DNA of 64,000 nt, taken from the NCBI GenBank assembly GCA_041650615.1, contig JBAZKU010000001.1, positions 524,854-588,853 of the forward strand, in the 5' to 3' direction. Positions within the stretch are counted from its first letter, which is position 1, and every line of letters starts with the position of its first letter. The stretch comes from Minisyncoccota bacterium (GTDB lineage: Bacteria > Patescibacteriota > Minisyncoccia > Phycocordibacterales > UBA9973). A program made the translations under genes and the position numbers. The notes under the pieces are model-generated. The model was given only the letters and a program-made list of their open reading frames with translations, searched no databases and was not told the origin of the DNA. This document shows positions 23,365 to 45,689 of this stretch, in pieces.

Positions 23365-26300
23365 ATGGCTGAAAATGAATTAAGTAATCCCATGCGAAAC
23401 AACGGTTCACAAAGTGAACCTGTTTCTGACGGGACAGGGAAATCGGAATCCGCGCTTCGAGAAGAAGCCGTTTTAAAATTTTGGAAAGAAAATAATGTAT
23501 TTCAGAAATCTTTAGAAAAAAAATCACCGAGAGGAGAATTTATTTTTTATGAAGGTCCGCCGACGGCTAATGGCAAACCGGGGATTCACCACCTTGAAGC
23601 GCGAGCATTTAAGGATGCTATTCCGAGGTATAAAACAATGCGAGGATTTCATGTGCGTCGCAAGGGCGGGTGGGATACCCATGGTTTGCCCGTTGAACTT
23701 CAAGTGGAGAAAAAATTGAACCTAGATTCAAAAATTGCCATTGAAAAATATGGTATTGCAAAATTTAATCAGCAATGCAAAGAAAGTGTTTGGGAATATG
23801 TTGACCTTTGGGGTAAATTTACCGAACGCATCGGTTATTGGGTAGACCAAGAAAATCCATATGTGACTTATCATAATAATTACATTGAATCTGTTTGGAA
23901 TATTTTAAAAAAAGTTAGTGCTCAAAATTTGCTTTATAAAGATTATAAAGTTGTGCCTTGGTGTCCGCGTTGTGGAACAGTTCTTTCCTCACATGAGCTT
24001 GCACAAGGATATGAAACCATAAAAGACTTGTCAGTGTACGTAAAATTCAAAATAAAAGAACAAGAAAACATTTTTATTCTTGCTTGGACCACTACACCGT
24101 GGACACTACCAGGCAACGTAGCGCTTGCTGTAGGCAAAAATATTGATTATGTAAAAATAAAAAAAGAAAATGAATTTTTGATATTAGCAGAAGAAAGACT
24201 TTCCGTTATAGACGGTGAATATGAAGTTATTGAAGAATTAAAAGGCAAAGATTTAATTGGTTTGGAATACGAACCGCTTTATCCATTTTTACAAAACACT
24301 ATTTCCGGAAAAGAAAAAGATAAAATGAATAAAGCCTATAAAATTTATAGTGCGAATTTTGTGACCACCGAAGATGGCACAGGGATAGTTCACACTGCCG
24401 TGATGTACGGACAGGACGACTTTGTGCTTGGTAATAAAGTAGGTCTGCCGAAACATCATCTCGTTGGCTTGGATGGAAAATTTTTAGCCGGTACAGGATT
24501 TTTGGAAGGCAGATTTGTACGGGATGAAGATGTGGCCGTGGATATTATAAAAGATTTGGCTCAAAAAGGACTTCTACTGAAAAAAGAAAAATATGAACAC
24601 TCCTATCCTCATTGCTGGCGTTGTCATACCGCCCTCATTTACTATGCTCGTGATTCTTGGTATATCAAAATGTCCGACTCGAAAATCAAACAGAAAATGA
24701 TTGAAGAAAATAAAGATATTAATTGGGAACCGGCACATATTCGTGATGGACGCTTCGGCGAGTGGTTGAAAGACATTAAAGATTGGGCAATATCGCGCGA
24801 ACGTTATTGGGGAAGTCCGCTTCCGGTTTGGATTTGTGAAACTTGTAAAAAGATTGAGGTTGTTGGAAGTTCGGAAGAATTGAAAGAAAAAGCAAAAAAA
24901 TCCGGGAATAAGTATTTTATAATGAGACATGGGGAAGCGGAGAATAATCTTGAAAGTGATACTGATTATAAAAATCTTAATCTCAACGCTAAATTAACAG
25001 AAAGAGGAATAGAAGAAATATTAACAAGTTGTAAAAATTTTAAAGAAAAAATTGATATAATTATTTCCTCGCCACTTGAACGAGCAAAAGAAACCACTAA
25101 AATAGTTTGTGGGCAGGTTGGTTTTCCATTTGAAAAAATCATTTACAATCAAAAAATTCAAGAATGGGAAGTTAGCTCCATTTTTAAAGGAAAGGAAAAA
25201 GCTATTTTTAAAAAATATTATGACGAAGATTATCTAGATAAACCAGATGAAGCTTTACCTGATGGAGAGAGTTTTGCGGAGGTAATTAAAAGAGTCGGTC
25301 AATTTATTTATGAGCTGGAAGTACAATATTCTAATAAAAATATTTTGATTGTCGGCCACGAAGGAGTAACTAATGCCTTAACTTTTGTAATAAAAGGATT
25401 GTCGTTAGATAGCTTATCAAAATTAAATAATCCATTTACTCCTATAAAAAATGCTGAAATAAGAGAATTTGATTTTATTCCGCTTCCGCATAATGAAAAC
25501 TATGAATTAGATTTGCACAGGCCTTACATTGATGAAATTCCGCTCGTTTGCGAATGCGGAGGAAAAATGACGCGTACCAAAGAAGTTATGGATGTATGGC
25601 TTGATTCCGGCGCTATGCCTTTTGCGCAGGACCATTACCCCTTTGACTTTGCTCGGGGTAAACCTTTTGAAAATAAAAAATTATCATATCCGGCTGACTT
25701 TATCTGCGAAGCGATAGACCAGACACGCGGGTGGTTTTACACTTTGCATGCGGTGGGAATTTTAATGGGAAAAGGGAAGGCATATAAAAATGTAATTTGT
25801 TTGGGACACTTGCTTGATGCCAAAGGGAAGAAAATGTCCAAATCCCTCGGGAATATTGTAGATCCGTGGGAGATGGTAGAGAAATATGGCGCGGATACAC
25901 TGCGTCTTTGGATGTATTCAATAAACCAGCCTGGGGAATCAAAGAATTTTGATGAAAAAACAGTTTTGGAACTTCATAGGCAGGTTTTTGGCTTGCTTTA
26001 TAATGTTTTGGCTTTTTATGAATTATATAGAAATAAAAATTTAGAAAATAATAATAGACCAAAATCAGATAATATTCTGGATATTTGGATTTTGGCCAAA
26101 TTAGATGAATTGATAGAATTAATAACAAAAAGTCTTGATAAATATAAGCTACTTGAGCCAACAAGAGCTATTCGCGATTTTATCGGCGACCTTTCTACTT
26201 GGTATTTGCGTCGTTCACGAGACAGAATTAAAGAAGGTAATATTGAAGCCAAGCAAACTTTATATTTTGTGTTGAAAAATCTGGCGAAATTAATGGCTCC

Positions 26301-26910
26301 ATTTGCCCCGCTTGCCGCCGAGGATATTTGGTTGAAATTAAAAAATAAAGATGATGCAGAAAGTGTGCATTTAACAAGTTGGCCTGTTAAAAAGTTTAAA
26401 ATTTTCTCTTTCAGTAAAACTAGGGTTTTAGAAAGCATGGAAACAGTCCGAAAAATAGTTACTCTTGGTCTTGAAGCCCGCCAGAAGGCAGGAATTAAAG
26501 TTCGTCAGCCGTTGAACCGATTGGAAATTGTAGCTGGGAGACTATTAAATGATTATCTTGAAATAATAAAAGATGAATTGAATGTTAAAAATGTTGATTA
26601 TTTATTAAAAATAAAAATAGGTTTATATAAAGTAACTCTTGATACGAAAATTACTCCCGAATTAAAACGAGAAGGAAATTATCGCGAACTAGCCAGAGCT
26701 ATTCAAGATATGCGCAAGAAAATGGGGCTTACCCCGAGTGATATTGTTTCTCTGGTTGTTGAAACAGATGAAGAAGGTAAAAAATTAATTCAAAAATTTG
26801 AAGTTGAAATAAAGAAAACTATTCTTGTGTCAAAAATAGAATTTAAACAAAACAATGGCGAGGAAATCAAAATAGATGAGCTAGTTTTTAAAATATTTAT
26901 TCAAAAATGA
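23365..26910 (+). CDS. ileS: Isoleucyl-tRNA synthetase with an inserted histidine-phosphatase-like domain of about 210 aa
   Basis: FYEGPPTANGKPGIHHLEARAFKD, editing/CP1 region, KMSKS at KMSKSLGN, C-terminal tRNA-binding region. Residues about 505-715 contain RHGE, SSPLERAKET and VGHEG motifs. Confidence 0.88.
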   Translation: MAENELSNPMRNNGSQSEPVSDGTGKSESALREEAVLKFWKENNVFQKSLEKKSPRGEFIFYEGPPTANGKPGIHHLEARAFKDAIPRYKTMRGFHVRRKGGWDTHGLPVELQVEKKLNLDSKIAIEKYGIAKFNQQCKESVWEYVDLWGKFTERIGYWVDQENPYVTYHNNYIESVWNILKKVSAQNLLYKDYKVVPWCPRCGTVLSSHELAQGYETIKDLSVYVKFKIKEQENIFILAWTTTPWTLPGNVALAVGKNIDYVKIKKENEFLILAEERLSVIDGEYEVIEELKGKDLIGLEYEPLYPFLQNTISGKEKDKMNKAYKIYSANFVTTEDGTGIVHTAVMYGQDDFVLGNKVGLPKHHLVGLDGKFLAGTGFLEGRFVRDEDVAVDIIKDLAQKGLLLKKEKYEHSYPHCWRCHTALIYYARDSWYIKMSDSKIKQKMIEENKDINWEPAHIRDGRFGEWLKDIKDWAISRERYWGSPLPVWICETCKKIEVVGSSEELKEKAKKSGNKYFIMRHGEAENNLESDTDYKNLNLNAKLTERGIEEILTSCKNFKEKIDIIISSPLERAKETTKIVCGQVGFPFEKIIYNQKIQEWEVSSIFKGKEKAIFKKYYDEDYLDKPDEALPDGESFAEVIKRVGQFIYELEVQYSNKNILIVGHEGVTNALTFVIKGLSLDSLSKLNNPFTPIKNAEIREFDFIPLPHNENYELDLHRPYIDEIPLVCECGGKMTRTKEVMDVWLDSGAMPFAQDHYPFDFARGKPFENKKLSYPADFICEAIDQTRGWFYTLHAVGILMGKGKAYKNVICLGHLLDAKGKKMSKSLGNIVDPWEMVEKYGADTLRLWMYSINQPGESKNFDEKTVLELHRQVFGLLYNVLAFYELYRNKNLENNNRPKSDNILDIWILAKLDELIELITKSLDKYKLLEPTRAIRDFIGDLSTWYLRRSRDRIKEGNIEAKQTLYFVLKNLAKLMAPFAPLAAEDIWLKLKNKDDAESVHLTSWPVKKFKIFSFSKTRVLESMETVRKIVTLGLEARQKAGIKVRQPLNRLEIVAGRLLNDYLEIIKDELNVKNVDYLLKIKIGLYKVTLDTKITPELKREGNYRELARAIQDMRKKMGLTPSDIVSLVVETDEEGKKLIQKFEVEIKKTILVSKIEFKQNNGEEIKIDELVFKIFIQK

Positions 26911-42175: not shown

Positions 42176-43042
42176 ATGGACAACATGTTAGGAGAGGATA
42201 ACAACCTAAAAGACACCTCAAAAGACTCTATAAAAGACCCTGAACAAAAGTCCTTGAGTTCGTACGGGGCAGGCACTCTAAATGTGGCAAATGTTTTACC
42301 CTATAATAAAATAAGTAAACTCATTACTGCTCTGTACATGGTAACGGACACGATGGAAAAAGAAGAACCAATACGTCTAAAGTTAAGGACACTTGGAGTG
42401 GAAATTATATCAGACATAAATTCTTTACCAAAAGGGACATTTGGTAACCTTAATGAAAAAATTACCACAATTCTGTCCTTTTTAAATATTGCTTTTGATA
42501 TTGGAATGATATCAGAAATGAATTGCAATATTTTAAAGAAAGAGTTTACGGAGTTGAAACGATCTATACAAGAGTTTACAACCCAAAACCATCTTTGGTT
42601 TGAAGAATTCATTCTTCATTCCTCCGAGAACGAAAGTCCAACTTTTAACAAACAAACGAAGATTCAACCCCCAATAAATAATATGTCTGTTAATAAAAGA
42701 CAAAGTACTAGAATTGGTGTTCAAAAGGGAGGTACTTTGTTAAAAGCTTTGTCTAATAGAGTTTCCATTATGTCTGATAAAAATAATCCCGTCTCATATG
42801 CTCCACCGGGACGAAATCATTTGGGATTTGAATTATTAAAACAACAAAGAAGAGAATCTATTTTAAAAATCATAAAAAATAAACCCGAAGGAATAAGTAT
42901 AAAGGACATTGTGTCTGCTATCCGTAATTTTGGCGAAGAGATAGGAGAAAAAACTTTACAAAGAGAACTTGTTTCCATGGTAAAGGACAATGTCCTTAAA
43001 AAGACTGGGGAGAAGAGATGGAGTCAGTATTTCATAAATTAG
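42176..43042 (+). CDS. Hypothetical protein with C-terminal winged-helix DNA-binding-like domain
   Basis: C-terminal ILKIIKNKPEGISIKDIVSAI...IGEKTLQRELVSMVKDNVLKK resembles a winged HTH. The N-terminal roughly 200 aa have no recognisable motif. Confidence 0.4.
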   Translation: MDNMLGEDNNLKDTSKDSIKDPEQKSLSSYGAGTLNVANVLPYNKISKLITALYMVTDTMEKEEPIRLKLRTLGVEIISDINSLPKGTFGNLNEKITTILSFLNIAFDIGMISEMNCNILKKEFTELKRSIQEFTTQNHLWFEEFILHSSENESPTFNKQTKIQPPINNMSVNKRQSTRIGVQKGGTLLKALSNRVSIMSDKNNPVSYAPPGRNHLGFELLKQQRRESILKIIKNKPEGISIKDIVSAIRNFGEEIGEKTLQRELVSMVKDNVLKKTGEKRWSQYFIN

Positions 43043-43178
43043 GTTCTAGTGGCTAGATTCTAGCTTCTAACCCATTGCTTCCTATCAAAAATTATGTAAT
43101 AATAGGCTTATGGGTTACCTCTTAATTTTGCTTTCCAGAACCTAGCTAATAGGGCCTAGAACCCAATTTTTGAGTTAT

Positions 43179-43311
43179 CTCCCACACTTACTTTACTGTT
43201 ATTCTGCTTTTTCAAAACATGTGTAAATTAGCTTTATTTTTAGCCCTTGAATTGTATTCTCATCAATACTCCTTGGCAGAATAAAAAGCTACAGTAAAGT
43301 AAGTGTGGGAG
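43179..43311. repeat. Inverted-repeat element (hairpin or MITE-like) in a long non-coding region
   Basis: Perfect 21-bp arms CTCCCACACTTACTTTACTGT (43179-43199) and ACAGTAAAGTAAGTGTGGGAG (43291-43311), extended by TATTCTGC/GCAGAATA (43200-43207 and 43276-43283), around a 68-nt loop. Confidence 0.6.
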
Positions 43312-43736
43312 TTATCCACATAATATATTGCCCTATCTAAAGGTTATATATTATAATGTTTGGGTGTTTACGGATCACGCATCTTATGTGTGTTCTGTAT
43401 TCGCAAATTGTATTTGTTTTCGTTCACGATTTCGTCGAAAAAATCTTGAAAGAGAACAAGCCCGACAAAGGTCAAAAATTTGTTCGGGTAAATCCATACA
43501 CTTAAAGGTAAGTGTGCGGATAAATGAAAGGTCATTGAAAACTAAATAATCCCGTTAAAAATTTTTTCAAAAATTTTGGCTCGGGATGTTTTCAGTGCAT
43601 TAGTTTAAATCTGTTCATTATTAAATTTATTTGTCGCATTATTAAATTTATAAGTTATAGGCAAATAAAAAAAATAATGATAGAAAAAATACGCTTTTAG
43701 TTTTGTCGAAACTAATTAATGGCGTAAAAAAAAATT

Positions 43737-45689
43737 ATGAGTAAATTATTAAAATCAAAAATTCTTCTTGCCCTTATGGTTGTTGCAGTAGTAGCAATAG
43801 TAGGAGTTTCTTCTACTCTCGCTTATACACATACAATAACCTTAAGACAAGGTTCATCCGGTGCTCAGGTTGCTTCACTTCAATCAGCGCTAGGGGTTAC
43901 TGCAGATGGCCAATTTGGTCCAATAACTAAAGCAGCTGTAGTATCTTTCCAGTCAGCTCACGGTCTCGTAGCCGATGGAGTTGTAGGTGCTATGACTGGC
44001 GCAGCATTGTCAGGCACAGTTAGTGGTTCTTACCCAGCAGGTTGTACTTCAACCGCAGGATATAGTTCAACAACTGGTCTTCCATGCAACAGCACTTCAT
44101 CTTTACCAGCAGGTTGTACTTCAACAGTAGGATACAGTCCAACAACTGGCGTAGCATGTTCAACAGTAGTTACAGGTCTTCCAGCAGGTTGTACTTCAAC
44201 CGCAGGATATAGTCCAACAACTGGTGAATCATGTTCAGGAACAACAACGGTTGTAAACGCAAGCGGTGAAGGTTCAATCACAGTAACTTATGATGCTGTT
44301 CCAGCAGATAACTTAGCTATTTACAGAGGGGAAAATAAGGCAGCCATGGCCTTGAAGATCAAGGCTACGGGTTCTGACATGAAAGTTACTCGTCTTTGGT
44401 TAGACATTAACACACGCATTTGGTTGTCCGCAGACTCTGTGTCCCTATTAGATGGGTCAACGGTTATCGCAACCCTTCCGCTTTCAGCTTCAACAGTTGA
44501 AGAAGTTACGGTAGGTTCTGCTTGGAGACTTCAATTCAACAGTTTGAATTTTGTGGTTCCGGTTGGAACGACAAAAGTGTTAACAGTAAATGTTAGCCGT
44601 CCAACAGCTACAGCAGCTGACTCAAGTGTTACTATTGCTACTACCAGTACCGTAAGAGCAGTTGACGCAGCCGGTATTTCAGACACATACACTCTTACAG
44701 GTCGTACTTGGAATATGGCATCCGCAGCCGCTGCTGTTGGTACATTAACAAATACTTTAAATGCCAATTCTCCAGTAGCTCAATCAGTTTCTGGTCTTAG
44801 CACTACAGCTGGTACCTTGACTGACGTTAAGTTAATGGATTTTGACCTTAAAGCAACAACCGGAGCAGTAAATGTTACAGCTATTGCTGGTACTATCACT
44901 ACTTCCGGCTCATGTACAGCAGCGCAATGTATTTCTTCCCTTGAACTTCGCGATGGAGCAACAGTTCTTGATTCCGTAACCGGGGCTGGCACATTTAGCT
45001 TCACTGAACAAGATATTGATGTTCCTAAAGATGGAACAAAGACATTGTCTATTTGGGCTAAAGTAAACCATATTGCTGCTAGTTATGTAGTAGCGGGCGA
45101 TTCAATTTATGCAATTGTAAACAGTGTTACAGGCACAAGCGGTCCTTCATATACTGCTGCTAATAACACAATTGCAGTTACAGGATATGCACAACACCTA
45201 TTCCGATATGCTCCTACCATCGCATTTGTATCAGCTACAGCAACTCCAGAGGATCAGAGTACTTCTACCACTCTTAATACGGGAGGTAACTATACTCTTG
45301 CCTTCTCTGTTACTGCTCCTTCTGGTAGCGATATCTTTGTTAATACCCCTGCATTCATTGTTGGTCAAGCTAATGTTCCTACAAAAACTACATTCGGTGT
45401 AGGAGGAACTATTGTGGTATCAACAGCTGTATCAGGAGCAACATTAAAGGGCGCTGGCAATACTGCTACCTGGGATAAAATTCCTGCAGGCCAGTCTAGG
45501 ACATTTACCCTTTCAGCACACATTCCACATGGTGGAAATGCTGGTTATGTTGGTATAAAGATAAATACTGCCGCTACTGCCGGTATTGCTTGGTCTTCAG
45601 ATGTAGATGAAGATGGTTCTACGGATATCCTACAGGTTTGGGGTGTTGATGACCTCAAGACTGGTTTGGTATACGTAACAGCAAACTAG
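43737..45689 (+). CDS. Secreted cell-surface protein: peptidoglycan-binding domain, CTSTxGYSxTTGxxC tandem repeats, large beta-rich C-terminal region (S-layer-like candidate)
   Basis: Signal peptide; PG_binding_1-like LRQGSSGAQVASLQSALGVTADGQFGPITKAAVVSFQ; three or four repeats of LPAGCTSTAGYSPTTG..C (nt about 44035-44250). Confidence 0.55.
   Translation: MSKLLKSKILLALMVVAVVAIVGVSSTLAYTHTITLRQGSSGAQVASLQSALGVTADGQFGPITKAAVVSFQSAHGLVADGVVGAMTGAALSGTVSGSYPAGCTSTAGYSSTTGLPCNSTSSLPAGCTSTVGYSPTTGVACSTVVTGLPAGCTSTAGYSPTTGESCSGTTTVVNASGEGSITVTYDAVPADNLAIYRGENKAAMALKIKATGSDMKVTRLWLDINTRIWLSADSVSLLDGSTVIATLPLSASTVEEVTVGSAWRLQFNSLNFVVPVGTTKVLTVNVSRPTATAADSSVTIATTSTVRAVDAAGISDTYTLTGRTWNMASAAAAVGTLTNTLNANSPVAQSVSGLSTTAGTLTDVKLMDFDLKATTGAVNVTAIAGTITTSGSCTAAQCISSLELRDGATVLDSVTGAGTFSFTEQDIDVPKDGTKTLSIWAKVNHIAASYVVAGDSIYAIVNSVTGTSGPSYTAANNTIAVTGYAQHLFRYAPTIAFVSATATPEDQSTSTTLNTGGNYTLAFSVTAPSGSDIFVNTPAFIVGQANVPTKTTFGVGGTIVVSTAVSGATLKGAGNTATWDKIPAGQSRTFTLSAHIPHGGNAGYVGIKINTAATAGIAWSSDVDEDGSTDILQVWGVDDLKTGLVYVTAN

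Follow-up and report, generated by a model that had tools for sequence, protein, structure and literature searches.

The stretch analyzed here, 64,000 nucleotides of contig JBAZKU010000001.1 (the window), is a chromosome segment of Candidatus Paceibacterota (Patescibacteria, or candidate phyla radiation, CPR), and same-strain contigs from Logan, JGI and ENA match it at 99.8-100% identity. At 43043-43736 it holds a non-coding island, which lies between a conserved gene for a winged-helix protein and a gene for a surface protein with a signal peptide and a peptidoglycan-binding domain. The first-pass annotation had seen no credible open reading frame (ORF) in this interval, and comparison with relatives bears this out: the 73-, 49- and 55-aa ORFs are unconserved in 30-40 orthologous regions, where the ORFs range from 1 to 81 codons in length and their frames shift. 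A small-protein reading of these three ORFs and of a 21-aa ORF was rejected because the sequences are unconserved. We think it probable that the island is a conserved control region of a major cell-surface protein gene, and that in this lineage two small palindromic elements have inserted into it. The features on which this view depends are as follows, in window coordinates:

42176-43042, plus strand: upstream gene, encoding a 288-aa protein with a C-terminal winged helix (Pfam HTH_12/FUR-like matches)
43032-43068 and 43137-43173: arms of a CTAG-rich imperfect inverted repeat that brackets P1
43075-43103, plus strand: P1, an extended -10 promoter-like motif (TTGCTT, 17 nt ending in TGT, AATAAT)
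43109-43118, plus strand: degenerate inverted copy of the box (TATGGGTTAC against TGTGGATAAC), just downstream of P1
43172-43179: left copy of the 8-bp direct repeat GAGTTATC, resembling a target-site duplication
43179-43311: palindromic element of 133 bp, an insertion, comprising stems, bulge and interior
43179-43199 and 43291-43311: stem 1 of the element, perfect, 21 bp
43200-43207 and 43276-43283: stem 2 of the element, 8 bp
43208-43275: interior of the element
43284-43290: 7-nt bulge of the element
43309-43316: right copy of the direct repeat GAGTTATC, overlapping the box
43312-43320, plus strand: invariant box TTATCCACA, within GAGTTATCCACA, which starts at 43309
43328-43357, plus strand: P2, a sigma-70-type promoter-like site, TTGCCC-18-TATAAT, matching at 10 of 12 positions
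43364-43736, plus strand: 5′ leader RNA, about 370 nt, structured into seven stem-loops (SL), starting right after P2
43364-43404: SL1
43414-43459: SL2, with loop CGUCGAAA
43460-43489: SL3
43492-43521: SL4, the mini-hairpin
43493-43524, plus strand: putative insertion of the mini-hairpin (SL4 core 43497-43516, flanking pairs 43492-43521)
43485-43492 and 43517-43524: imperfect 8-nt direct repeat round the mini-hairpin (CGGGTAAA and CGGATAAA)
43533-43597: SL5
43610-43684: SL6
43690-43726: SL7, with loop GUCGAAA
43737-45689, plus strand: surface-protein gene, 650 aa, with a signal peptide and a PG_binding_1 domain

For comparison, 80 syntenic loci, designated below by L-numbers, were collected via alignment of the winged-helix protein family. 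The stretch that runs from GAGTTATCCACATAATATATTGC (43309) to the ATG (43737) is kept at the nucleotide level in 52 or more relatives (nhmmer, E down to 1e-37), and in these more than 50 genomes the winged-helix protein is only 39-69% identical to that of the window. In every relative whose contig reaches the start of the gene, the leader precedes a gene for a protein of 640-1370 aa starting MSKLLKSKFLLG. An integration scar or boundary, as had been proposed for the island, does not fit this pattern, since about 430 of its 690 bases are promoter and structured leader shared by more than 50 genomes.

The alignments show that the leader is conserved and that its stems covary. Its fold has a z score of -9.55. 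Of the cells, 88% are paired in the alignment of 39 species and 95% in that of 37, as opposed to 33-54% when the partners are slid. The two alignments contain 15 and 17 pairs with double changes, and none of 500 shuffles reaches the observed covariation score. Many of the U-G pairs of the leader would be mismatches on the other strand, and we therefore take the RNA to be the plus strand. A hairpin reported earlier at 43461-43488 is SL3, which is maintained by compensatory changes in relatives. The leader is single-copy in the window and carries GUCGAAA in the loops of both SL2 and SL7 (43433-43440 and 43705-43712). No terminator and no helix sequestering the start codon is evident in it, and the fold leaves the A-rich stretch ahead of the AUG unpaired. 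A scan of the whole window against Rfam 15 gave zero matches at gathering scores; the island itself drew only hairpin-driven matches to plant microRNAs and similar families (14-34 bits against gathering cut-offs of 42-195), the minimal orthologue of the island (L019) drew none, and a tRNA/tmRNA scan found none of either. The leader may stabilize the mRNA, regulate it, or both, through a bound protein. As a separate observation, other secreted-protein genes are preceded by a second family of leaders (TGTATAATTATTGATACATTGGCGTGTCGAATACGC), which is shorter and also has GUCGAA(A/U) loops (L016:12560-12575, L086:4205-4220 and L051:9740-9752).

Upstream of the leader, the box TTATCCACA is unvaried in 39 aligned relatives and equals the DnaA-box consensus at 9/9 positions. 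The related loci scanned for the box total 928 kb, in which the perfect 9-mer occurs 109 times where about 4 are expected per strand, an excess of about 20-fold with a strong strand bias. Leaving aside close copies of P2, 33 of 62 sites have an exact TATAAT 37-51 nt past the box, and the sites with this arrangement stand mostly before signal-peptide genes and in some cases before ftsK. Because the same spacing recurs at many genes, we regard the box as a general promoter-upstream element in this lineage. Candidates for the protein that reads it would be the always-adjacent winged-helix protein or DnaA.

P2 is the best promoter-like site within 2 kb. Its TATAAT (43352-43357), already picked out as a -10-like box in the first-pass annotation, is essentially invariant in the 39 relatives, and the TTG of its -35 hexamer (43328-43333) is nearly so. 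The site is embedded in a 14-bp AT-rich palindrome (43320-43333 and 43342-43354) that spans the -35 and the -10, and the central 4 bp of this palindrome covary across the 39 species (CG/UA/GC/AU), which is unexpected for promoter DNA. This covarying helix in the P2 spacer suggests either that P1 transcripts cross P2 or that a DNA hairpin forms there. P1, in the form TTGC[AT]T-N14-TG-N-nAAnAT, is present between the upstream gene and the box in 37/37 relatives examined. In relatives the motif (G/A)TGGAT(A) stands 6-11 nt past the -10 of P1, and in L046 and L054 it abuts the box so that the two form a palindrome. Judging from these motifs, P1 and P2 would both be expected to act as promoters.

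The large hairpin lies between P1 and the box. Shuffled sequences gave no chance match to the perfect 21-bp inverted repeat noted earlier, and its 8-bp extension pairs in the predicted fold, with a compensatory change from A-T to G-C keeping the pairing in a diverged copy. The two helices make a 29-bp stem across the 7-nt bulge, and the fold of the region has a z score of -6.9 against shuffles. Double changes occur at 11 of the 29 pairs, and 98.9% of cells are paired compared with 39-52% in slid controls. Among three species the arms agree at 97-100% identity and the interior at 60-75%; diverged copies agree at about 40% in the interior and keep the inner motifs TATTCTGCTTTTTCA and GCAGAATAAAAAGC. 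The sole ORF inside the element, 21 aa long, is unconserved. No T run follows either arm on either strand, and a terminator scan calls no intrinsic terminator after the hairpin. A covariance model of the element finds one copy in the window (E = 4e-28). We also tried an alternative internal pairing of TAGCTTTATTTTTAG with CAGAATAAAAAGCTA, which turned out to be no feature of the family.

Comparison of filled and empty sites shows the large hairpin to be an insertion with a flanking duplication. At least 40 relatives, 46 in one count, carry GAGTTATCCACATAAT uninterrupted and have no hairpin, and the empty site in relatives, including L006 and L024, is a single GAGTTATCCACA. Between the empty locus L006 and the filled locus L085 the upstream flank is the same, and the only difference is the element plus a second GAGTTATC; the empty L024 and the filled L016 form a second such pair. 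On the promoter side, the box is left intact by the insertion. The junctions can be parsed equally well as a TTAT duplication of 4 bp flanking an element of 133 bp whose terminal repeats are perfect. Presence and absence are also at odds with phylogeny. By the neighboring protein, the loci closest to the window are L007 (69% identity) and L005 (66%), both empty, and the closest relative of L085/L087 is L006 (73%), which is empty as well, while the window shares only 60% identity in that protein with the filled L085 and L087. These empty and filled sites, the 8-bp duplication, the terminal inverted repeats and the diverged relatives at other loci uphold the earlier description of the hairpin as MITE-like, a MITE being a miniature inverted-repeat transposable element.

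Beyond the orthologous site, other signal-peptide genes have full-length copies adjoining this box (L016:12366-12508, L051:9538-9678 and L086:4004-4148), and in the last of these the interior is inverted relative to the box. Shorter, different members occupy the identical site in L040, L053 and L016. Hairpins with the termini [CT]ACAC[CT]T...A[AG]GTGT[AG] and a stem of at least 11 pairs number 19, where 1.55 are expected. The 64-kb window has one full copy, the 8-kb contig L086 has two full copies and two mini-hairpins, and L016 has two members. These comparisons show that the large element belongs to a family of palindromes. When metagenome contigs were searched with the exact 21-mer arm, it hit four contigs from two related species, all at the orthologous locus and in the same internal orientation; in these contigs the intergenic DNA is 82-90% identical as against 70-77% for the flanking genes. 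A dispersed family of identical copies is ruled out by this confinement of the exact arm to the orthologous locus in metagenome contigs. The repeat family suggested in the first-pass annotation stands in the form of diverged copies and shared termini in relatives, and not as a repeat within the window, which has one full copy in 64 kb. Viral contigs scanned for the inner motifs contained no copy of the element and no transposase with matching ends, and no dnaA, dnaN, transposase or recombinase is among the 32 window ORFs scanned. Hairpins of the family also lie directly upstream of the TATAAT before the winged-helix gene in L005 (5942-5996) and L052 (5920-5983), nested in the latter. In L086, moreover, the loop of SL7 carries an inserted palindrome of 107 nt (CCCCACCCCACTTTGAA...TTCAAAGTGGAGTGGGG; L086:598-703).

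The mini-hairpin shares ACACTTA/TAAGTGT with the base of the large stem, as the first reading had it. In the 64 kb, CACACTTA occurs four times where 0.92 is expected, and three of the four occurrences are inside the island. The mini-hairpin is a 32-nt addition relative to L007, L011, L006 and L085, which have a single GGGTAAA at this point, and a similar addition is found at the same position in L010. Another gene's leader contains a near-identical mini-hairpin (CACACTTAAATGTAAGTGTG) at L086:4231-4252. Scored against the element model, the mini-hairpin of the window gives 17 bits (E = 4), which is not significant, the hairpin being too short to score. By its shared termini the mini-hairpin is likely to belong to the palindromic family.

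We hypothesize that the island consists of a conserved scaffold, in which P1 is followed by the invariant box GAGTTATCCACA with its DnaA-box core, by P2 about 40 nt downstream and by the leader of about 370 nt reaching to the start codon. A 133-bp element resembling MITEs or repetitive extragenic palindromic (REP) sequences, with the termini CCCNCACACYT...ARGTGTGNGGG, would have landed inside the box and duplicated the 8 bp GAGTTATC, a duplication that would leave an intact box adjoining P2. The mini-hairpin, a short member of the family or a derivative of one, would have inserted between stem-loops 3 and 5. Both insertions would persist because they are self-folding and leave the neighboring elements intact. 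That the elements move in this manner is what we infer from the arrangement.

The signatures of insertion, the distribution at odds with phylogeny, the differing sizes and the existence of an inverted copy are best accommodated by a MITE/REP-like palindromic element. Several observations nevertheless weigh against it: there is one full copy in the window; in metagenomes the exact arm is confined to the orthologous locus; a transposase or recombinase is absent from the window ORFs scanned and the element from the viral contigs; it is ambiguous where duplication gives way to terminal repeat, since either 4 bp (TTAT) or 8 bp (GAGTTATC) could be duplicated; selection at the level of the host would fit equally well with arms that are so much better kept than both the interior and the neighboring genes (60-70%); and all 7 long members found abut a TTATCCACA-like box, which may reflect function instead of target choice. 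Low copy number, no transposase found, strict box association and near-invariant arms strain the notion of a purely selfish element, and for these same reasons an explanation by host function keeps substantial weight. Here the hairpin would be a regulatory structure of the host (a stem-loop in the P1 transcript, a cruciform, or a protein-binding palindrome, with the inverted half-box on one side and the box on the other), recruited time and again for its tuning of the expression of surface-protein genes. The contrast between arms and interior in three species, the position of every long member directly upstream of the box, the presence of some short hairpin at the same place in most relatives and the retention of TATTCTGCTTTTTCA and GCAGAATAAAAAGC in diverged copies all agree with such a role; the hairpin would, in addition, be transcribed from P1, and the covarying helix in the P2 spacer suggests transcription through the region. 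However, in about 40 of 46 species the hairpin is missing although the scaffold is complete, a clean 8-bp duplication together with empty sites is what an insertion leaves behind, one copy has the reverse orientation with respect to box and gene, and related hairpins occur in unrelated contexts too. On balance we consider a host regulatory origin unlikely, and prefer the insertion of a mobile palindrome.

Other explanations fare worse. The suggestion of a small RNA locus, made at first reading, can be framed as an independent gene transcribed from P1 and processed to a long, microRNA-like hairpin. The conserved promoter-like P1 upstream and the very stable fold would suit such a gene, and wobbles in diverged copies are mostly U-G in the orientation of the element (5 against 2 non-pairs), although this count is too small for significance. 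P1 is, however, kept in species without the hairpin, no terminator follows the hairpin, and the only Rfam matches are spurious plant-microRNA hairpins far below threshold, so that a free-standing small RNA gene is unsupported and, in our estimation, improbable. Still less can be said for inverted repeats flanking an inverton that controls the downstream surface-protein and glycan locus. The repeats do lie upstream of that locus, the interior has a weak minus-strand promoter-like site (CTGCCA-17-TACAAT), the interior of the L086:4004-4148 copy is inverted relative to its box, and a same-strain contig ends inside the element. On the other side, a single orientation is seen in 7/7 assemblies that span both arms (the window, L001, L003, L004, L085, L087 and L088), the interior is poorly conserved and its putative -35 is lost, an interior of 68-91 bp is very short for a switch, and the neighbors are FtsK, RecA, winged-helix, surface-protein and Wzy genes, with no recombinase gene found nearby; we judge an inverton very improbable. 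The least credible of the alternatives is a replication origin or DnaA-titrating site. The invariant 9/9 match of TTATCCACA to the DnaA-box consensus and the AT-rich palindromes nearby would favor it, but the island has only one perfect box and one copy with one mismatch, the GC skew does not turn at this position, neither dnaA nor dnaN is among the ORFs scanned, and the fixed distance of the box from TATAAT at many genes is promoter-like behavior. Two further candidates were rejected by sequence. A dif/Xer site, prompted by the adjacent ftsK, fails by eye, as the sequence past the box misfits the dif consensus, and an integron attC site fails because the GTTATC flanks misfit the RYYYAAC/GTTRRRY cores.

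The setting of the island is as follows. Its upstream end contains the CTAG-rich quasi-palindromes described at first reading, which are real, with arms that are 73% complementary and a fold only modestly above chance (z = -2.2). They form the only CTAG cluster in the 64 kb (43046-43160), holding 5 of the 66 CTAGs of the window, where about 207 would be expected in total. The repeat is partly conserved, in that GGTTCTAG/CTAGAACC recur in L015 and L028, where they follow the winged-helix gene, and in L032 and L086, where they precede hairpin elements. The CTAG repeat may be the terminator region of the upstream gene. The 288-aa protein encoded by that gene has 1057 homologues, and its gene adjoins the island in all relatives (the 80 syntenic loci). 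A structure model has an N-terminal 4-helix bundle resembling Xcc0516 and Avd of diversity-generating retroelements, and a C-terminal winged helix resembling BlaI, Fur and PadR, with disordered linkers between the domains; the fold scores are weak throughout, and no relative of the winged-helix family turned up when the PDB was searched by sequence. We regard this protein as a candidate regulator. The surface-protein gene contains internal repeats of about 85 bp (43995-44078 and 44145-44225, 85% identical) that encode repeated PAGCTSTAGYSPTTG motifs. It is followed by two Wzy_C genes and by sugar-nucleotide enzyme genes, and the genes upstream of the island are ordinary (a type IV pilus ATPase and platform protein, ComEC, tRNA synthetases, RecJ, SSB, EF-P, RecA and FtsK). 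Elsewhere in the window, an ORF resembling isoleucyl-tRNA synthetase (23365-26910, 1181 aa) has a His_Phos_1 histidine-phosphatase domain inserted at residues 518-690.

Contigs often end at this locus. In about 20 of the 80 relatives the contig stops within about 1.2 kb downstream of the winged-helix gene; in window positions, L002 ends at 43213, L004 starts at 43068 and L001 ends at 43726, and a same-strain JGI contig terminates inside the large hairpin. The locus is probably a hot spot of assembly breaks, owing to the hairpin, the strain-variable surface gene, or both. As a practical point, metagenome assemblies frequently break where the hairpin and the variable surface gene lie.

The palindromic family and the leader each fall within a known kind of element. 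The Correia elements of Neisseria, the ERIC/IRU sequences of enterobacteria and bcr1 of the Bacillus cereus group are bacterial MITE-like palindromic elements, and the element described here is like them in being about 100-155 bp long and non-coding, with long terminal inverted repeats that make one hairpin and a short flanking duplication. As with those elements, its members are intergenic and promoter-proximal, are polymorphic for presence and absence, and come in size variants that arise by internal deletion. It differs from them in its CPR host, in its very low copy number in the sequence available, in being apparently tied strictly to one promoter box of 9-12 nt, and in outer bases of the terminal repeat that mimic the target (TTAT-CTCCCACAC against TTAT-CCACA). 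To our knowledge the 133-bp element has no partner transposase. With REP sequences and bacterial interspersed mosaic elements, which are mobilized by REP-associated tyrosine transposases (RAYTs), it shares the character of a short extragenic palindrome that varies in length, has conserved feet and often lies between genes or within transcripts, and the mini-hairpins of 20-35 nt are REP-sized. Here, however, there is no GTAG-type head (the termini are CCCNCACACYT), there are far fewer copies, the main element measures 133 bp and the long members have an interior of 70-90 nt; no RAYT-like gene is among the window ORFs scanned.

The leader, for its part, resembles the long, folded 5′ untranslated regions carried by genes for S-layer proteins and major surface proteins, such as the slpA leaders of Lactobacillus and Thermus, in that a long leader separates a strong promoter from the gene of an abundant surface protein, and it is like mRNA-stabilizing leaders in having a 5′-terminal stem-loop, SL1, that starts at the predicted start of the P2 transcript. 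In contrast to the slpA leaders, it is about 370 nt long, has seven covarying stem-loops with repeated GUCGAAA loops, and is kept in sequence across 50 or more species. The invertible promoters of Bacteroides capsular polysaccharide loci likewise have inverted repeats upstream of a surface-glycan locus, but no second orientation, conserved internal promoter or nearby recombinase was found here. In the literature searched, we found nothing relevant on CPR MITEs, CPR structured RNAs or Parcubacteria S-layer leaders. What is unusual about the locus is the box-specific insertion and the breadth over which the leader is conserved.

The CPR/Patescibacteria are mostly uncultured, their gene control is almost unknown, and their genomes are usually called nearly free of mobile DNA. 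We tentatively entertain the wider possibility, which we would not yet favor, of an undescribed system of envelope regulation in Paceibacterota. It would combine a DnaA-box-like promoter box read by the winged-helix protein or by DnaA, a new class of leader of about 370 nt with protein-binding GUCGAAA loops, and palindromes that integrate site-specifically via an 8-bp core common to their ends and the target, thereby rewiring the promoters of surface genes between species. More directly, the locus offers a promoter architecture of box, -35 and -10 that recurs at surface-protein genes. Its leader is a candidate for a new class of cis-regulatory RNA, absent from Rfam, that precedes the gene of the envelope protein most conspicuous in these episymbionts, and the palindromes are evidence that such genomes gain and lose small elements, which may be mobile, at a specific regulatory site.

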